NCBI GenBank assembly: GCA_050943055.1
Contig: JBMNOL010000004.1
Coordinates: 3,262-67,261 of the forward strand
Reading direction: 5' to 3'
DNA: 64,000 nt
DNA from: Patescibacteria group bacterium
Lineage (GTDB): Bacteria > Patescibacteriota > Patescibacteriia > Patescibacteriales > UBA12465
Shown piece after piece: positions 28,475 to 58,580 of the stretch; position 1 is the first letter of the stretch; the number at the start of each line of letters is the position of its first letter. Both the position numbers and the translations under genes were made by a program. The notes below the pieces were generated by a model that saw only the letters and a program-made list of their open reading frames with translations, had not been told where the DNA came from and ran no database searches.

Positions 28475-29633
28475 ACTTCCCAGTTGGTGACCAGTGCCAA
28501 GGCTCGCTTAAAATATTTGCGTAAAGACCGTTAGCGTTCATGCACTCTTTTAAGCCGCTATCCTCGTTATAAGCCCAGCTCATCTTTCCTTTAAGATAGT
28601 TAATATCAATTGCTTGCCCAGAGCCATGATTGGAACAGCAAGGCAGAGCGGCTTTACTGCCTCCTTCTTGTTCATATTTTAATCTTAGTTCGACCTGTCT
28701 TTTTGGGGATCGCCAAGCGTTATTAATCCCAAAAGGCAAATTGCCTCCATTTTTTTCTTTGACACATTCCATTGCTGATAGATAGGCGCTGAGAACAGAT
28801 TGCTCAATAAAAACAGTCGAGCCATTAATAGCCTTGGTTGTTGTTAGGCCCGCTGGTTGTGTTTCGCCTAAGGCCATACATAAAGAATAATCCCCTTTTT
28901 TGCTAGCCGCGCAAGCATCCTGGTAGGGGTTGGCGGCTTGGGCGGCTTCTCCTAATTCAGTAACATCGGTATCGGGGTTAATTTCTAGGGGTTCAATATA
29001 AGCAATTTCCAGACTTTTTAATTTTACTAAATCAGGGTTAATAAAACTTAAAATTAAATTAGCACTCACCAGGAGAATTAAGCCAGTGACACTGCCGGTG
29101 ATCATATTTTTGGCCGTGGCGATTTTTCCTTGGTCGCCACCAGAAACAATCCAAATTACACCCGCGGCCATTAAAATTAAAACCGCTAAAATGCTAGCAA
29201 TATTAAGGGCGAAACTATAGAGGCCAAAAGAATATTCAGAAATCCAGGGAATTTTACAGACACCATTAGAGCAGTCAACTTCACTTAATCTTTCTAAACC
29301 CGGAATTTCTACCTGCCAAGTATCTGAAGGGTTTGTAAATTTAGGCTCTCTAAGAGGGGCCTGTTCTTTAGTGCAGCAACAAAGATAGGTATAAGCGCCT
29401 TCGGTAGGTTTATCACCGACGCAAGCTGTTCCGTTAACAGTATTGCCTGGGCAAACAAAGCGGTCGTTACTTCCAGGGGTTATAACTGAGCCGACCGCGC
29501 CAGGAGTGCCGGAAATTCTTTCTGCTCGAGTCCAAACACAAACATCAGCTTGAGCGGGAAGAGCAATAAAAAAAGATATTCCTAAAAATAATAAGGTGAC
29601 CGCGATTAAATTTTTATTAGAGATTAATTTCAT
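28473..29633 (-). CDS. Secreted Cys-rich protein with VirB2/TrbC-type (T4SS pilin-like) hydrophobic hairpin fused to a C-terminal M15/VanY-like (LAS) peptidase domain
   Basis: Signal peptide ending ALPAQA-D, then a Cys-rich N-domain (CVW..CPG..CVG..LCCC..C..C). The pilin-like core is ILAVLILMAAGVIWIVSGGDQGKIATAKNMITGSVTGLILLVSANLILSFINPDL (nt 29028-29231). The C-terminus has SNHGSGQAID (nt 28605-28634) and SEPWHW, i.e. the SxHxxGxAxD and ExxH metal-binding motifs of the VanY/M15 family. Confidence 0.7.
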   Translation of the reverse strand: MKLISNKNLIAVTLLFLGISFFIALPAQADVCVWTRAERISGTPGAVGSVITPGSNDRFVCPGNTVNGTACVGDKPTEGAYTYLCCCTKEQAPLREPKFTNPSDTWQVEIPGLERLSEVDCSNGVCKIPWISEYSFGLYSFALNIASILAVLILMAAGVIWIVSGGDQGKIATAKNMITGSVTGLILLVSANLILSFINPDLVKLKSLEIAYIEPLEINPDTDVTELGEAAQAANPYQDACAASKKGDYSLCMALGETQPAGLTTTKAINGSTVFIEQSVLSAYLSAMECVKEKNGGNLPFGINNAWRSPKRQVELRLKYEQEGGSKAALPCCSNHGSGQAIDINYLKGKMSWAYNEDSGLKECMNANGLYANILSEPWHWSPTGK

Positions 29634-51826: not shown

Positions 51827-53497
51827 ATGTTTGACTATTTGCAAAAATTTGATGGCCTGCCAGAGAAAATTCAGGCCAGTGTTTCCTCCCCGGCAGCAAT
51901 GGCGGTCATTTCTGATTTAGAAAAAAAGTATCAAGTCGATTTAGCGGCTTTAGTTATTAAAGTAGTGGTCAAAGATATTGCGTTGGCTGATCTGCCGGCT
52001 CATTTAGTTTCCGAATTTCAATTAAGTCCGGATAACGCTCGCCATTTGACGGCGGACCTAAAAGAGCGGCTCTTTTTTCCGATTGCCAATTACTTAGGCT
52101 ACAATCCTTCTTACTCAACAATTATTCCGGAAGCGAAACCCGTTTCTGATACTTTTTATTTAATTAAAAAGGTTATTCGTGAAGCCGGACTTAACTTCTC
52201 CGTCAGCGAGTTAAACCAACGTTTAGAAAATATTTTAAACACTTATTTTAAGGGCGTTCGCAGCCGCATTGATACTCGCCTAGCTTTAAATAAGGGGATA
52301 ACTAATGGCGGTTTGGGTTTGGACCATAAAATAATTGATCGCTTATTTTTGTTAATTGATCAAGCTCGTGAAAAACCGATCCTTACTCCCACTGCTGAGA
52401 CTGCGCCAGTAACAGATATAAAAAATGACGCGGTGTCTTTAGAAAAAGTGCGCGCGGCTTACCAAAAAGCTGGTACTGCTAGAGATATTCCCTATGATCT
52501 TAAGGCGGCCATCGCTAAGCGACAGGAAGCCGAGGCAGCTCCGCAAAAATTATTAAAAGATGGCGCGGAAACATCTTTAGCAGCGCCGCGATTAACACCT
52601 TTGGCCGTGCCGGTGAAAAAAGAAAAAGCTTCCGAAGTCTCAAAAAATGAGGCCTCTAAAGTTGCTCCCGTTACGTTCCCGACTTCGCCGATTCCACCAG
52701 TACCAGTTGCGCCGACACCAGCGCCGGCATCTCAGCCAGTGTCGGTACCGACGCCGACGCCAATATCAAAGCCAGCCCCGATATTAACTCCTAAGGTGGA
52801 GTCTGTTTTGGTGGCGCCTCTTTTACCAACCAAAGAAGGACTAAGAACCATTGAGCAACCGCCAAAAAAGAAGTCTAATTTCTTTAAAAAAATATTTTCA
52901 AAATCAGAGAAAGAGGTGGCGCCATTACCAACTACGCCAACTCCGAAGCCAACACTAGCTGGCTCGTCTTCAGTGGCGAGTTTAAGACAGCAGGCTCAGC
53001 AAAATATCAATAATCCTCATTTACGGCCCGATTCCATCTCTAGTGCTCCGTTAAAGGCGGGGAGTCAACAATCGGTGGCACCCATTAAGAGCACGCTGGC
53101 GCCTATTAAAAACGCGTTCACACCTCAGCCAACCCCGAGTCCGGTTGTGAATTCTTTAACTAGGCCAAAAACTTTGGGGCCGGTAGAGGAGCTCCATTAT
53201 TTAGAGTTAATCAACTTTCGTCGTTTAGGTGCTTCCCCTAAAGAAGCTGCTGCCAAGATAGAAAAAAAGATTCGTACTCTGGAGAGTGAAGGATATGATA
53301 AAATGGTTGAAGGAATTCTTGCTTGGCGTTCGGGAGAGATAAATAGTATTTATGTTAAAATGGCTAAAGAGGCTTTGAAATATCAGGTAACTTTGAAACA
53401 GATCGCTGATAAATATCAGGCCCAAAAAAATCCTCAATATTTAACCTGGGATGAGATTGAAGAATTGATTGCCCTTAACCATCGTTTAACTTTTTAG
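51827..53497 (+). CDS. Hypothetical protein with shared N-domain, Pro-rich linker and C-terminal helical domain
   Basis: 556 aa. The N-domain is paralogous to the preceding ORF. Pro-rich tracts PVTFPTSPIPPVPVAPTPAPASQPVSVPTPTPISKPAPILTP (about nt 52661-52800) and APLPTTPTPKPT. No family recognised. Confidence 0.6.
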   Translation: MFDYLQKFDGLPEKIQASVSSPAAMAVISDLEKKYQVDLAALVIKVVVKDIALADLPAHLVSEFQLSPDNARHLTADLKERLFFPIANYLGYNPSYSTIIPEAKPVSDTFYLIKKVIREAGLNFSVSELNQRLENILNTYFKGVRSRIDTRLALNKGITNGGLGLDHKIIDRLFLLIDQAREKPILTPTAETAPVTDIKNDAVSLEKVRAAYQKAGTARDIPYDLKAAIAKRQEAEAAPQKLLKDGAETSLAAPRLTPLAVPVKKEKASEVSKNEASKVAPVTFPTSPIPPVPVAPTPAPASQPVSVPTPTPISKPAPILTPKVESVLVAPLLPTKEGLRTIEQPPKKKSNFFKKIFSKSEKEVAPLPTTPTPKPTLAGSSSVASLRQQAQQNINNPHLRPDSISSAPLKAGSQQSVAPIKSTLAPIKNAFTPQPTPSPVVNSLTRPKTLGPVEELHYLELINFRRLGASPKEAAAKIEKKIRTLESEGYDKMVEGILAWRSGEINSIYVKMAKEALKYQVTLKQIADKYQAQKNPQYLTWDEIEELIALNHRLTF

Positions 53498-53959: not shown

Positions 53960-54631
53960 ATGGCTAAGAAAAAACCGCAAGCTCCCGTTTCTACTCAGCA
54001 ATATTTAGACATTGCCGAGATTAAAGACGGCACGATTATTATGAAGGATGGTACTATTCGGGCCATTTTTTTAGCTTCCAGTATTAACTTTGCCTTAAAA
54101 AGTGAAGACGAGCAAAATGCGGTTATCGGTTCCTATGTTAGATTTTTAAATAATTTAAGGTTTACTTTGCAAATTGTTATTCAGTCGCGAGAATTAAATA
54201 TTGAAAATTATTTAATTTATTTAAAAGAAAAAGAAAAAGAACAGACCAATAAATTATTAAAATTACAGACAGCGGAATATATTGATTATATTCAGGAATT
54301 AACTTCTTTGGGGCAAATCATGAATAAGCGTTTTTATGTCGTCGTCCCTTATGATCCGCTCACCGATCAGCATAAAGGCTTTTTTGATTCTTTAAAGGAA
54401 GCGTTGCGCCCCGCCTCCTCAATTGTTTTAAAAGACAAAACTTTCCGTCGTTATCAAAAAAGTTTAGATTTACGCTTGGAAAGTGTGGCGACCGGACTGA
54501 CTTCTTTAGGAGTGAGCGTGGAACGTTTAAATACTCAGCAATTGATTGAATTATTTTATAACACTTATAATCCGGAAACGGCTAAGAATCAAAAGTTAGT
54601 GGATATTAAAAAATTACGCGTGGATTTATGA
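53960..54631 (+). CDS. VirB4 N-terminal-domain-like protein (separate ORF)
   Basis: STQQYLDIAEIKDGTIIMKDGTIRAIFLASSINFALKSEDEQNAVIGSYVRFLNNL matches the N-terminal pattern of Gram-positive VirB4 homologues (Tn916 Orf16/TcpF type). That pattern runs I..dG.i...dG.y...i....iN..L.s..eq..i...y..fLN. The stop overlaps the next ATG (ATGA at 54628-54631). Confidence 0.55.
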   Translation: MAKKKPQAPVSTQQYLDIAEIKDGTIIMKDGTIRAIFLASSINFALKSEDEQNAVIGSYVRFLNNLRFTLQIVIQSRELNIENYLIYLKEKEKEQTNKLLKLQTAEYIDYIQELTSLGQIMNKRFYVVVPYDPLTDQHKGFFDSLKEALRPASSIVLKDKTFRRYQKSLDLRLESVATGLTSLGVSVERLNTQQLIELFYNTYNPETAKNQKLVDIKKLRVDL

Positions 54632-56559
54632 TAGATTTTAGTAAACAAGATGATCGAAAAAAAATCGGTTTAGATACCGATATTCGCGATTTAAATTTTC
54701 GATCCCAATCTGATGATAACGAAAAACCGTTTATTCCCGATCTCTCGGCCGATGAAGCTAAAGACATTATTGAAGAAGAAAAAGCTTTTCGGCGCGGCGT
54801 TTTATCGGTTCGGGATTTGATTTCGCCGGCGGCTTTAAAGGCGGAAGCTAGGCATTTGGTTTTGGGCGGTAAATTTGTCCGAACAATTTTTATTATTGGT
54901 TATCCGCGTTATATTAGTGTGGGCTGGTTTGCCCCGATCATCAATTATAATCTTACTTTTGATGTTTCAATGTTTTTTTATCCGGTTAAGAGTGCAATTA
55001 TTTTAAAACAATTACAAAATAAAGTCGGTAGCATTAGCGCCCAAATTATTGCTGATGCTGAAAAGGGGGCGGCCCGCGATCCCCTACGAGAGACCGCTCT
55101 TCACGATATTGAATTTTTACGCGACTCCTTAACTCAAGGGACAGAAAAGTTTTTTCAATTTTCCTTATACATCACCATTTACGCTGATAACCTAGAAGAA
55201 TTGGATCGGGCCAGCGAACAGATTGAAGATATTTTAGGGTCACGTTTAGTTTATTCACGACGAGTTTATTTCCAATCGGAGCAGGGCTTTAATTCCACTT
55301 TGCCCCTAGGTAATGACGAGCTTTATATTACCTTTAACATGAATTCGTCGCCGATCGCCTCCTCTTTCCCTTTTATTTCCAGCGAGTTAACTAGTGACAA
55401 AGGCATTCTCTACGGCATTAATCGCCATAATAACAGCTTGATTTTGTTTGATCGCTTTTCTTTGCCGAATGCGAACTCTGTTGTTTTTGCTACTTCGGGC
55501 GCCGGTAAAAGCTATGCGATTAAATTAGAAGTCTTGCGATCATTGATGTTAGGCACCGATGTTATTGTGATTGACCCCGAGCATGAATACAAGCATCTCT
55601 CCGATGCGGTCGGCGGGACTTACATTAACATTTCTTTGTCTTCAGAAAACAAGATTAATCCTTTTGATTTACCGCGTTCCGTTGGTGGCGATAGCAAACC
55701 TAAAGATATTTTGCGCTCCGCGGTGATTACTCTTAAAGGTTTATTGCGATTAATGTTGGGTAAATTTAGTTACGAAGAAGATTCAATTATTGATCGAGCG
55801 CTTCTAGAGACTTATGCTAAAAAAGATATTACTCCCGATGTCGATCTTTCTAATATCAGCCCTCCCGTCATTAGTGACTTAGAGCAAGTTTTAGAGGGTA
55901 TGGAAGGGGGCAGTAATTTAGCTTTGCGTCTTAAAAAATATACCGAGGGAACTTTCTCTGGTTTGTTAAATAGCCCGACCAATGTCGAGATGAATAATCA
56001 GTTGGTTTGTTTTTCTGTTCGTGATTTGGAAGACGAATTGCGGCCGATTGGAATCTACACCATTATTAACTACATTTGGAATGTCGTCCGGAGTGAAACT
56101 AAGCGCCGAATACTGGTTATTGATGAGGCTTGGTGGATGATGCAATACGAAGACTCCGCTAAGTTTATTTTTGCTTTAGTTAAGCGCTGTCGTAAATATT
56201 ATTTGGGGATTACGACAATCACTCAAGATGTCAACGACTTTTTAAGCTCTCCTTACGGTCAAGCCATTGTCAATAATTCCTCTATGCAATTACTGCTCAG
56301 GCAATCACCGGCGGCCATTGATTTGGTGCAAAAAACTTTCTTATTGACTGAGGGAGAAAAGTATCTATTATTAGAGGGCGGTTTAGGGGAAGGGATTTTC
56401 TTCGCCGGCAATAAGCATGTGGCGATTAAAGTGGTCGCCTCTTATTCTGAGGATCAATTAATTACTTCCGACCCGCGCCAATTACTGGAAATTGCTGAGG
56501 CTAAGCGTCGCTTTGACGCTTCTCAAGCTTCAGGCAGGGTCGCTGATTTAGATATTTAA
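54628..56559 (+). CDS. virB4: VirB4-like T4SS ATPase (middle + ATPase domains)
   Basis: 643 aa. YPRYISVGWFAPII (the yP..l..gwl block), Walker A ATSGAGKS (nt 55489-55512), Walker B RILVIDEAWWMM (LVIDE at nt 56113-56127), TTITQDVNDF (sensor/arginine-finger region). Confidence 0.8.
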   Translation: MIDFSKQDDRKKIGLDTDIRDLNFRSQSDDNEKPFIPDLSADEAKDIIEEEKAFRRGVLSVRDLISPAALKAEARHLVLGGKFVRTIFIIGYPRYISVGWFAPIINYNLTFDVSMFFYPVKSAIILKQLQNKVGSISAQIIADAEKGAARDPLRETALHDIEFLRDSLTQGTEKFFQFSLYITIYADNLEELDRASEQIEDILGSRLVYSRRVYFQSEQGFNSTLPLGNDELYITFNMNSSPIASSFPFISSELTSDKGILYGINRHNNSLILFDRFSLPNANSVVFATSGAGKSYAIKLEVLRSLMLGTDVIVIDPEHEYKHLSDAVGGTYINISLSSENKINPFDLPRSVGGDSKPKDILRSAVITLKGLLRLMLGKFSYEEDSIIDRALLETYAKKDITPDVDLSNISPPVISDLEQVLEGMEGGSNLALRLKKYTEGTFSGLLNSPTNVEMNNQLVCFSVRDLEDELRPIGIYTIINYIWNVVRSETKRRILVIDEAWWMMQYEDSAKFIFALVKRCRKYYLGITTITQDVNDFLSSPYGQAIVNNSSMQLLLRQSPAAIDLVQKTFLLTEGEKYLLLEGGLGEGIFFAGNKHVAIKVVASYSEDQLITSDPRQLLEIAEAKRRFDASQASGRVADLDI

Positions 56560-56576
56560 AGATAAGATAAATTTAT

Positions 56577-57203
56577 ATGAAAAATCCTAAGAGAACGGGC
56601 TTAATCATTATTGTCATTTCCTTAATATTGCTAGCCGCCTTAATCTTTTTAATTATCTGGCAAAAAAATGCTCAGCCGGAGACTCCGGAAGTCATTCCGC
56701 CAATAGCAACTTCAACTTTGCCGCTCGCCGAGACTGATCCCGTTGAGACGCCAACCACAACTCCGGGCGACCGACCGCGCAACTATCAGTCTTATGATGT
56801 TTCTCAAGAACCGCCTTATCAAGTGGTCGCTTATGACGCTGAGAAAAAAGCCAAATTATTTGCTGAACGCTTTGGTAGTTTTTCCAACCAATCCAATTAT
56901 AGCAATATCGCTGATGTTACTATTTTAATGACGCCCGATATGCGAACCTGGGCGGAGAATTATTTAGCGGAGTTGCGCCGCCAACCTTATAGCGGTGATT
57001 ATTACGGTATTATCACGACCGCTATTTTTTCTGAAACCTTGGCTTATGACGAAGTTGCGGGAACAATTAATTTACTGGTGACCACCGAGCGGCAGGAAAC
57101 TAAAGGCTTGGAAGTCGGCCCGCTCTATGAACAAAAAATTGAAATTGATTTAATCAAGGAGGGTAACGATTGGTTAGTTGACCGCGCTCAATGGCGGGAG
57201 TAA
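56577..57203 (+). CDS. Hypothetical bitopic membrane protein, possible VirB8-like (NTF2-like) T4SS component
   Basis: 208 aa. N-terminal TM (GLIIIVISLILLAALIFLIIW), a Pro/Thr-rich spacer, then a globular domain of about 140 aa ending ...KEGNDWLVDRAQW. The topology and position after VirB4 are as for TcpC/PrgL/Orf13-type proteins. There is no sequence-level proof. Confidence 0.35.
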   Translation: MKNPKRTGLIIIVISLILLAALIFLIIWQKNAQPETPEVIPPIATSTLPLAETDPVETPTTTPGDRPRNYQSYDVSQEPPYQVVAYDAEKKAKLFAERFGSFSNQSNYSNIADVTILMTPDMRTWAENYLAELRRQPYSGDYYGIITTAIFSETLAYDEVAGTINLLVTTERQETKGLEVGPLYEQKIEIDLIKEGNDWLVDRAQWRE

Positions 57204-57215
57204 AGTATTGAAGTT

Positions 57216-58580
57216 ATGGCCAGTTTAAAAACAATTTATGTTTGTTCTAATTGCGACGCCCAATTTCCTAAATGGAGTGGGCGTTGTTCGGAATGCGGGT
57301 CCTGGGGAACTTTAACTGAAGAAATTAAGGATCAAAAAGAAGCGGCCAAAGCGGATTTGAGTAAAATCGCGGGCGCGGAACTCTTAGATTTGCGGGAAAT
57401 AAAAAGTGATCAGTTACCCCGTCTACGTACCAGTCTTAGTGAAGTTGATGGCGTTTTGGGTGGCGGTTTGGTACCGGGATCGCTAACGCTATTAGCGGGT
57501 GAGCCGGGTATTGGTAAGTCCACCTTAGTGGCCCAGATGGCGAGTGCTTTAGGGAAGACGGCCACTGATAAAAAATCACCGGCGGTTATTTATGCGAGCG
57601 GGGAAGAATCGGCTCGGCAAGTGAAGGATCGTTTTGATCGTTTAGGCAGTAGTTTAGATAATCTTCGTTTTATCAGTGAAACCAATATTGAAAAAATAAT
57701 TGCTACCGCCACTAAAGCAAACCCCCAGCTTTTAATTATTGACTCAATTCAGACGGTTTATTCCGCTTTAATTCCTTCGGAGGCCGGTAGTTTAAATCAA
57801 ATTCGGGCCGCCGCCGTAAAATTATTGGAGTTAGCAAAAGGCAATGGCGTCACCGTAATGATGGTTGGTCACATTACTAAAGATGGTCAAGTCGCTGGTC
57901 CTAAATCTTTAGAACATATTGTTGATACGGTGGTTTACCTGGAGGCCGAAAAAGCCAATAGTTTTTGCTTGTTGCGAGCGAGCAAAAATCGTTTTGGTGC
58001 TACCAGTGAATTAGGAGTTTTAGAAATGACTGGTCGCGGGTTTGAAACGGTTGTTAGCCCCAGTTCCGTTTTTATAGAAGGGATAAGCGGTGATATTTCC
58101 GGTTCCGTTGTTGGCTGTGTCTTAGAAGGTGCGCGCCCTTTTTTAGTTGACCTGCAGTCGTTGGTTTCAAAAACCGTTTTCGGTTATCCGCAACGAAAAG
58201 CGAGCGGCTTTGACCTGAACCGCCTGCAAGTTTTGGCGGCGGTAATTTCCAAACGCACTAAAATAAATTTAAGTAGCCAAGATATTATTTTAAATTTAGT
58301 TGGTGGTTTGCGCTTGGCTGATCCGGGTTTGGATTTAGCGGCTTGCGCGGCGATGATTTCCTCTTTTTATAATAAAAATTTTAATCGGCAAACGATTGTT
58401 ATTGGTGAGGTTGGTCTTGGCGGTGAAGTTAGGGCGGTTTCGCGCCTGGAACAGCGCTTAAAAGAGGCGGAAAAATTAGGTTTTAAGCAAGCGTTAATTC
58501 CGGATGTTCCTCTAAAGGCGACTAAGCTAAAATTAGTGAGAGTGAAGAATTTAAATGACTTAGTTGAGTTTATAAAATAA
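57216..58580 (+). CDS. radA: DNA repair protein RadA/Sms
   Basis: Zn-finger CSNCDAQFPKWSGRCSECGSWG, Walker A GEPGIGKST, KNRFG motif, C-terminal Lon-protease-like domain. Confidence 0.95.
   Translation: MASLKTIYVCSNCDAQFPKWSGRCSECGSWGTLTEEIKDQKEAAKADLSKIAGAELLDLREIKSDQLPRLRTSLSEVDGVLGGGLVPGSLTLLAGEPGIGKSTLVAQMASALGKTATDKKSPAVIYASGEESARQVKDRFDRLGSSLDNLRFISETNIEKIIATATKANPQLLIIDSIQTVYSALIPSEAGSLNQIRAAAVKLLELAKGNGVTVMMVGHITKDGQVAGPKSLEHIVDTVVYLEAEKANSFCLLRASKNRFGATSELGVLEMTGRGFETVVSPSSVFIEGISGDISGSVVGCVLEGARPFLVDLQSLVSKTVFGYPQRKASGFDLNRLQVLAAVISKRTKINLSSQDIILNLVGGLRLADPGLDLAACAAMISSFYNKNFNRQTIVIGEVGLGGEVRAVSRLEQRLKEAEKLGFKQALIPDVPLKATKLKLVRVKNLNDLVEFIK

Follow-up and report, generated by a model that had tools for sequence, protein, structure and literature searches.

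A VirB4 ATPase in the genome of a Patescibacteria group bacterium appears to be encoded by two adjacent genes. The pair lies in a 64,000-nucleotide (nt) stretch of contig JBMNOL010000004.1 (assembly GCA_050943055.1; hereafter, the window) and consists of two open reading frames (ORFs): ORF1, a TrsD-like protein that corresponds to the first part of a conventional VirB4, and ORF2, which corresponds to the remaining core of that protein, including its ATPase domain. A gene for a PrgI-family, VirB3-like membrane protein stands immediately upstream (Table 1). We propose that this conserved prgI-trsD-virB4 unit serves as the motor module of a chromosomal type IV secretion system (T4SS) in a bacterium of the Patescibacteria, or Candidate Phyla Radiation (CPR), that is probably Falkowbacteria-like, and that TrsD and the core together rebuild VirB4; we put the probability of this reading at roughly 0.8.

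A first-pass annotation of the window had described two intact ORFs joined by an ATGA overlap, and both the ORF listing and the sequence agree with that description. The ATG of ORF2 occupies positions 54628-54630 and the TGA of ORF1 positions 54629-54631, which places ORF2 in the -1 frame relative to ORF1 (junction sequence ...gtggatttATGAtag...). The peptide quoted in that annotation, IKDGTIIMKDGTIRAIFLASSINFALKSEDEQNAVIGSYVRFLNNL, corresponds to ORF1 residues 21-66. The combined length of the two products is 866 amino acids (aa), as had been stated there in likening the pair to a full VirB4. An ATGA junction is an ordinary operon feature, since a further 4-nt overlap of neighbouring same-strand ORFs is present in the same window (29630-29633, - strand). 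The same-strand cluster around ORF1 and ORF2 is itself closely spaced, with 3-nt gaps at 53497/53501 and 53956/53960 and, 3' of ORF2, gaps of 17 nt and then 12 nt. We regard ORF1 and ORF2 as real genes and not chance ORFs because of their homologues. ORF1 has 5118 of these (expectation value, E, of 1e-3 or less) in a collection of 5.8 billion proteins, the best 120 of the 5118 being all 221-231 aa long and derived from Patescibacteria and Falkowbacteria, and ORF2 scores above a curated VirB4 cut-off.

That cut-off belongs to NF045971, the CD1110 VirB4-like family, for which ORF2 obtains 354.8 bits against a threshold of 325 (E 9.5e-106) over profile positions 178-734 of 752. The match of ORF2 to NF045975 (VirB4_plasma, the Mycoplasma-type VirB4) starts at position 276 of 894. 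The Pfam model P-loop_TraG is matched at 1.4e-30, the VirB4 C-terminal domain of PDB entry 4ag5 is matched by ORF2 residues 254-613 at 7.7e-48, and the translation carries a Walker A motif (ATSGAGKS) and a Walker B motif (ILVIDE); TrwK, the VirB4 of R388, is found by sequence at 1.4e-4. The family models, 4ag5 and the Walker motifs thus uphold the earlier assignment of the middle domain and the ATPase to the 643-aa ORF. With BLASTP, the alignment to the 796-aa PrgJ of pCF10 (1e-38) begins at ORF2 residue 59 and PrgJ residue 222, and that to TrsE of pSK41 (4e-43) begins at ORF2 residue 63 and TrsE residue 36. According to these profile and BLASTP alignments, the complete N-terminal region found in a single-chain VirB4 (~800 aa) is not present in ORF2. 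Instead, a leader of approximately 58 residues is followed by the latter portion of the VirB4 N-terminal region and then by the C-terminal ATPase domain. The leader is poorly conserved, lies outside the alignments with both PrgJ and TrsE, and looks like a charged linker or leader. ORF2 is, on these matches, a VirB4 ATPase without the approximately 220 first residues of the single-chain protein.

ORF1 is, by its profile matches and its modelled fold, a homologue of the VirB4 N-terminal region, approximately its first 220 residues. It matches VirB4_plasma at E 1.6e-9 (profile 103-233 of 894), the CD1110 VirB4 family NF045971 at E 7.6e-4 (profile 7-92 of 752), and the TrsD/TraD family NF041427 at E 1.2e-7 (profile 28-200 of 201; 31.8 bits, curated cut-off 200). 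We also scanned, one at a time, 84 diverse relatives that are 35-50% identical to ORF1. VirB4_plasma was matched by 84/84, TrsD by 75/84 (counted at E<=1e-3), CD1110 VirB4 by 56/84, and the general VirB4/CagE model TIGR00929 by 27/84. The first-pass annotation had placed the VirB4 N-domain pattern in the 223-aa ORF, and had said beforehand that a lack of profile similarity to VirB4 N-domains would speak against it. Such similarity was found for ORF1 and for all of the 84 relatives, and the placement is confirmed by the N-terminal matches to three VirB4 profiles together with the TrwK-like fold described below. ORF1 also conforms to the TrsD pattern of a soluble protein of ~220-230 aa, with no hydrophobic segments, whose gene has a VirB3-like gene on one side and a shortened VirB4 gene on the other. 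We therefore describe it as a remote TrsD/TraD homologue that is not a member at NCBI's threshold.

Because ORF1 matches early positions and ORF2 later positions of the same profiles, the two are shown, at the level of profile alignment, to be complementary and collinear pieces of VirB4, and not a full VirB4 accompanied by a duplicated domain. Weak matches to the Pfam model TraC_F_IV are split in the same manner, ORF1 covering positions 131-179 and ORF2 positions 275-373 of this 375-position N-terminal model, which puts the break within a region that Pfam takes to be one N-terminal domain. Pfam PF26593 is the database's precomputed family for every ORF1 homologue listed; PF26593 was not among the matches of ORF1 in a local Pfam-A scan, even at E<=1.

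A model of ORF1 was built with AlphaFold2 (AF2) from the diverse alignment and reached a predicted local distance difference test (pLDDT) score of 90.3 and a predicted template modelling (pTM) score of 0.80. In a Foldseek comparison of this model with the PDB, the top 14 matches were all R388 TrwK/VirB4 chains, at probability 1.00 and E 7e-4 to 7.5e-3, with ~170-220 aligned columns and 8-18% identity in the structural alignment; the next PDB match after these 14 had a probability of 0.23. This model replaced an earlier one made from a shallow alignment (sequences >=71% identical), which had a pLDDT of 61 and a weak Foldseek result (E 7.8e-3). Sequence searches of the PDB with ORF1 alone and with the family profiles A1 and A2 gave no meaningful match, the best being the designed protein 9k80. 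The likeness of ORF1 to TrwK thus comes from the fold comparison only, as the sequence search missed it.

To examine the split in related genomes, a check that had been proposed together with the first-pass annotation, the junction was reconstructed in 80 loci, each taken from a different GTDB species representative and sharing 61-91% identity with ORF1. Two separate genes were present in 80/80 loci, and a single continuous ORF in 0/80. In all of them the ORF1 homologue is closed by a stop codon, at a length of 222-238 aa (median 226 aa; one case cut by a contig end aside), and the ORF2 homologue (median 633 aa) begins with an ATG of its own, where the N-terminus M-[IVL]-[ND]-F is conserved across the orthologues. 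Apart from one of 187 aa (L050) and seven that are cut by contig ends, the ORF2 homologues are 624-649 aa long. In 79/80 loci the gene directly upstream of that for ORF1 encodes a PrgI homologue, and the exception is cut by a contig end. ORF1 has a mean column identity of 83% over 72 clusters (90% identity), and the identity of ORF2 across loci is 77-93%. Representatives of 50%-identity clusters yielded 2278 matches to ORF1; the best 150 of these 2278 were 132-478 aa long, and 0/150 were VirB4-sized. As far as comparative sequence data allow, the split is hence shown to be a genuine, old gene arrangement, an ancient gene fission maintained by strong purifying selection. A genuine two-gene VirB4 had been the first of three readings offered earlier, and in substance it is the one that the 80 loci support.

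The other two readings do not survive this comparison. A sequencing or assembly indel in a single-chain virB4, or recent pseudogenisation of such a gene, would be compatible with the window viewed by itself, where the ORFs are in different frames, overlap by 4 nt only, and add up to nearly the length of a complete VirB4. However, a two-gene structure of similar lengths recurs in all 80 of the independent species-level genomes, in most of the orthologues the two genes are set apart by a real spacer that contains stop codons, free-standing homologues of ~225 aa number in the thousands, and ORF1 is strongly conserved. Because all of the 80 loci keep two genes, we exclude both sequencing error and recent pseudogenisation, to which we would assign next to no credence. 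The second reading had also included a programmed frameshift. If ribosomes were programmed to slip by -1 on the A-run at 54608-54613, a fused full-length VirB4 would be made, alone or beside the two separate products, and the window does contain ORF2 in the -1 frame, an AAAAAA run 15 nt before its ATG, and an ORF2 frame that is open from 54610 on, after a TAA at 54607-54609. In the related loci, however, all three relative frames occur (0, +1 and +2 in 27, 20 and 33 loci, respectively), ORF1 is always terminated by a stop codon and usually followed by a spacer, and ORF2 always starts from the ATG of the conserved motif. Of the other loci that share the ATGA overlap, most lack the A-run (it is missing from L011, L015 and L022, and only four A's stand in L052), and no conserved slippery heptamer with a conserved -1 frame relation was found among the 80 loci. 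Since neither the frame relation nor the A-run is conserved, programmed frameshifting is excluded as well, as a very improbable account of the pair.

The first-pass annotation had further held that the clean ATGA junction favours translational coupling. This argument fails because it is conservation, and not the junction, that decides the case. The 4-nt ATGA overlap occurs in only 7 of the 80 orthologous loci (8/81 when the window itself is counted); one further locus has an 8-nt overlap, 68 have a spacer of 1-27 nt, and 4 have a spacer of 87-106 nt, so that ORF1 and ORF2 overlap, by any length, in 8/80 loci and are spaced, mostly by 1-27 nt, in the remainder. The ATGA overlap is a local trait of the closest relatives of the window, whereas the split itself is the conserved feature. 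Given the short distances, which are compatible with coupling without being diagnostic of it, coupling by termination and reinitiation is a plausible prediction, but on the spacing data such coupling cannot depend on the ATGA overlap as such.

Several of the records examined merit a remark of their own. In L050 (1562-2125) the ORF2 homologue stops after 187 aa, which could reflect a frameshift or a pseudogene in that metagenome-assembled genome, and in L062 (~6677), which has the sole 8-nt overlap, the N-terminus of ORF2 is divergent. Many GTDB records with the Patescibacteria-type locus (L001, L003, L006, L012-L014 and others) are titled 'uncultured Gammaproteobacteria bacterium', and the L054 record is titled 'Planctomycetota bacterium'; such titles look like placeholder or wrong organism names. 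Approximately one third of the TrsD-like cluster representatives (P0122-P0267) are 280-478 aa long and have N- or C-terminal extensions of 60-220 aa. The idea that these are TrsD-like proteins partly fused to the VirB4 core or to PrgI was rejected, as the extensions have no BLASTP or Pfam match.

A split of this kind has a plasmid counterpart. The first-pass annotation had started from the premise that VirB4 of Gram-positive systems is a single chain of about 800 aa, which holds for PrgJ but is broken by pSK41 of Staphylococcus aureus, in which three consecutive genes encode a membrane protein in the VirB3 position (135 aa), TrsD (227 aa; annotated as TrsD/TraD family), and a 672-aa DUF87 ATPase that is TrsE/VirB4. 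The order VirB3-like, TrsD, VirB4 is the same in both systems, as are, approximately, the sizes (135/227/672 aa there and 151/223/643 aa here), and the VirB4 breakpoint agrees within ~30 residues with that of pSK41, a member of the pGO1/pSK41 subclass of MPF_FATA in which TrsD and TrsE are equivalent to TraD and TraE. An hhalign comparison of the ORF1 family with pSK41 TrsD aligned residues 9-205 with residues 31-217 (E 1.8e-5), close to the whole length. There are also differences. The sequence similarity of ORF1 to TrsD is remote; trsD and trsE are 14 nt apart, whereas ORF1 and ORF2 overlap; and the pSK41 genes are carried on a conjugative plasmid, near a relaxase and a coupling protein, whereas the genes described here are chromosomal and lie among housekeeping genes. 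Within the part of the window that was examined, neither a relaxase nor a coupling protein was seen.

Among single-chain proteins, PrgJ (pCF10, CD1110 family) and Orf16 of Tn916 share with the window a homologous ATPase core and middle region, and in pCF10, as here, PrgI is directly upstream of the VirB4 unit; PrgJ is one chain of 796 aa, whereas here the first ~220 residues come from a separate gene. TrwK/VirB4 of R388 (PDB 7O41, 7O42, 7O43, 8RTB and 8RTD) is the sole solved fold matched by the ORF1 model. Unlike the present pair it is a single chain, of 823 aa, from a Gram-negative system, and its machine includes outer-membrane components, which are absent here. The actinobacterial SCO6880 family represents another lineage in which, it appears, separate genes encode the N-terminal region of VirB4 and the ATPase. 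Weak matches (E 1e-5 to 0.04) to the 477-position profile of this family are arranged with PrgI at 13-79, ORF1 at 249-292, and the ORF2 N-terminus at 363-476. Judging from the profile coordinates, the break in SCO6880 appears to come later, after the whole N-terminal region, and VirB3 appears to be fused on. The pELF paper (PMC13492992) was dropped as a comparison, its TraD being a VirD4 homologue.

The first-pass annotation had treated the split VirB4 as something new by implication; in fact, TrsD beside virB4 in Patescibacteria has already been published. Quinonero-Coronel et al. (2025, Microbial Genomics, PMC12102498) found TrsD, searched for with the MPF_FATA TrsD profile (HMM) of CONJScan/MacSyFinder, to be the most abundant T4SS component in Patescibacteria, with 2,272 homologues in 2,221 assemblies, 1,664 of the 2,272 adjoining virB4, and placed the Patescibacteria VirB4 clade inside MPF_FATA. 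In the same report the TrsD homologue of Ca. Southlakia epibionticum ML1 is listed among essential genes. The homology of TrsD and VirB4 is attributed there to Guglielmini 2014 (PMC4027160); the word TrsD is absent from the main text of the latter and presumably stands in a figure or supplement. The genes in the window belong to the same system as the published pair, with trsD directly upstream of virB4, with PrgI/VirB3, and on the chromosome; nothing substantive sets them apart, the ATGA overlap being a sub-lineage trait only. The locus in the window is one more orthologue of an already published and very widespread arrangement, and it establishes no new principle.

How the pieces may work together is suggested by what is known of the single-chain protein. 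In R388, the VirB4 N-terminal domain joins protomers into dimers, is situated at the membrane, and contacts VirB3 and VirB8 (reviewed in PMC12857230). We suggest that the detached N-terminal module, TrsD, would bind the ATPase core non-covalently, and that the N-terminal domain of VirB4 would be reconstituted in this way. The PrgI-family protein (Pfam PF12666 PrgI, E 2.1e-8, 35 bits, cut-off 27) has two adjacent hydrophobic segments, at residues 19-56, and would serve as the membrane anchor. Adjacency in one operon, with a 4-nt overlap here and mostly less than 30 nt elsewhere, would lead to co-expression in roughly matched amounts, for which termination-reinitiation coupling is possible and not required.

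A number of points weigh against this proposal. ORF1 is far under the cut-off of NF041427 (31.8 vs 200 bits), which makes it a remote relative of plasmid TrsD; the query-normalised Foldseek TM-scores between the ORF1 model and TrwK are modest, at 0.33-0.51; and when the ORF1 family was compared by hhalign with PrgJ as a single sequence, the result fell short of significance (E 0.12), although the top alignment did fall at the collinear N-terminal motif (PrgJ 47-94). TrsD homologues of Gracilibacteria are not adjacent to virB4 (PMC12102498), and TrsD can thus be genetically uncoupled from it.

Some of the same observations would suit a different role for TrsD, that of an accessory protein in its own right (a chaperone of assembly, a substrate adaptor, or a regulator, for example) that shares only its ancestry with the VirB4 N-terminus. 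TrsD lacks an assigned function, its gene stands away from virB4 in Gracilibacteria (PMC12102498), and about one third of the cluster representatives carry the 60-220 aa extensions of no detectable family. Nevertheless, ORF2 lacks exactly the region that ORF1 resembles, gene order and the adjacency to PrgI and VirB4 do not vary among the 80 loci examined, and the very high conservation of ORF1 goes along with that of ORF2. We consider an accessory role unlikely, and prefer the reading in which TrsD and the core rebuild VirB4.

The motor genes lie on the chromosome (Table 1), with LeuRS and KsgA upstream and RadA, a THUMP-domain methyltransferase, and RecG downstream. The start of RadA is 12 nt beyond the final T4SS-cluster gene and on the same strand, and the secretion genes seem to sit within an operon context of housekeeping genes. 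Scans with Pfam and NCBIfam assigned no family to the ORFs between 38588 and 53497 or to that at 56577-57203, and any assignment of VirB6, VirB8 or pilin to the neighbouring ORFs is a guess. Some of these ORFs nevertheless look as T4SS parts would be expected to look, among them a polytopic membrane protein of 980 aa and small bitopic proteins. By its position and topology, the 980-aa ORF is a candidate for a channel protein of the VirB6-like type that carries a large additional domain; the Pfam and NCBIfam scans showed no homology to VirB6. Likewise, the 199-aa and 208-aa ORFs that flank the motor genes are candidates for pilin-like or VirB8-like components, and the 2,569-aa ORF may be a surface or adhesin-like protein linked to the secretion locus.

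Table 1. Features of the prgI-trsD-virB4 locus and of its neighbourhood, in window coordinates
Feature	Position	Strand	Description
ORF, 225 aa	38588-39265	+	N-terminal hydrophobic segment; weak matches (E 2e-7, 7e-6) to repeat regions of the myxobacterial cohesion/gliding proteins MtsD and CglD
Giant ORF, 2,569 aa	39303-47012	+	One N-terminal hydrophobic segment; no Pfam match; immediately upstream of the T4SS cluster
ORF, 199 aa	47189-47788	+	Two adjacent C-terminal hydrophobic segments; no family match
ORF, 980 aa	47807-50749	+	At least 9 hydrophobic segments in the first ~320 residues; no Pfam/NCBIfam family
ORF, 556 aa	51827-53497	+	Directly upstream of PrgI; long proline-, threonine- and alanine-rich low-complexity middle; no family match
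PrgI-family (VirB3-like) small membrane protein, 151 aa	53501-53956	+	First gene of the prgI-trsD-virB4 triad
ORF1, 223 aa	53960-54631	+	ATG start; no hydrophobic segment; TrsD-like; homologous, as a free-standing protein, to the first ~220 residues of single-chain VirB4
ATGA stop/start overlap of ORF1 and ORF2	54628-54631	+	Read from the sequence
ORF2, 643 aa	54628-56559	+	ATG start; VirB4 core with C-terminal ATPase domain
ORF, 208 aa	56577-57203	+	One N-terminal hydrophobic segment; no family match
RadA	57216-58580	+	Zinc ribbon, AAA_25/KaiC-like ATPase and Lon-like C-terminal domains

For annotation, we recommend that the 223-aa gene be labelled as TrsD-like (VirB4 N-terminal module) and that the pair not be flagged as a frameshifted pseudogene. 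A naturally split VirB4 also offers a handle on the N-terminal module, with its roles in membrane and VirB3 anchoring and in dimerisation, separately from ATP hydrolysis. The T4SS of Patescibacteria has been reported to be essential for the epibiotic lifestyle (PMC12102498, PMC12857230). We raise, as a speculative and rather improbable extension, that the fission is itself functional, the VirB4 ATPase ring docking on and being released from a PrgI/TrsD membrane platform, or the parts assembling at a stoichiometry other than 1:1. If this were true, the essential T4SS of Patescibacteria would have a regulated or exchangeable motor, which is impossible in systems with a single-chain VirB4.

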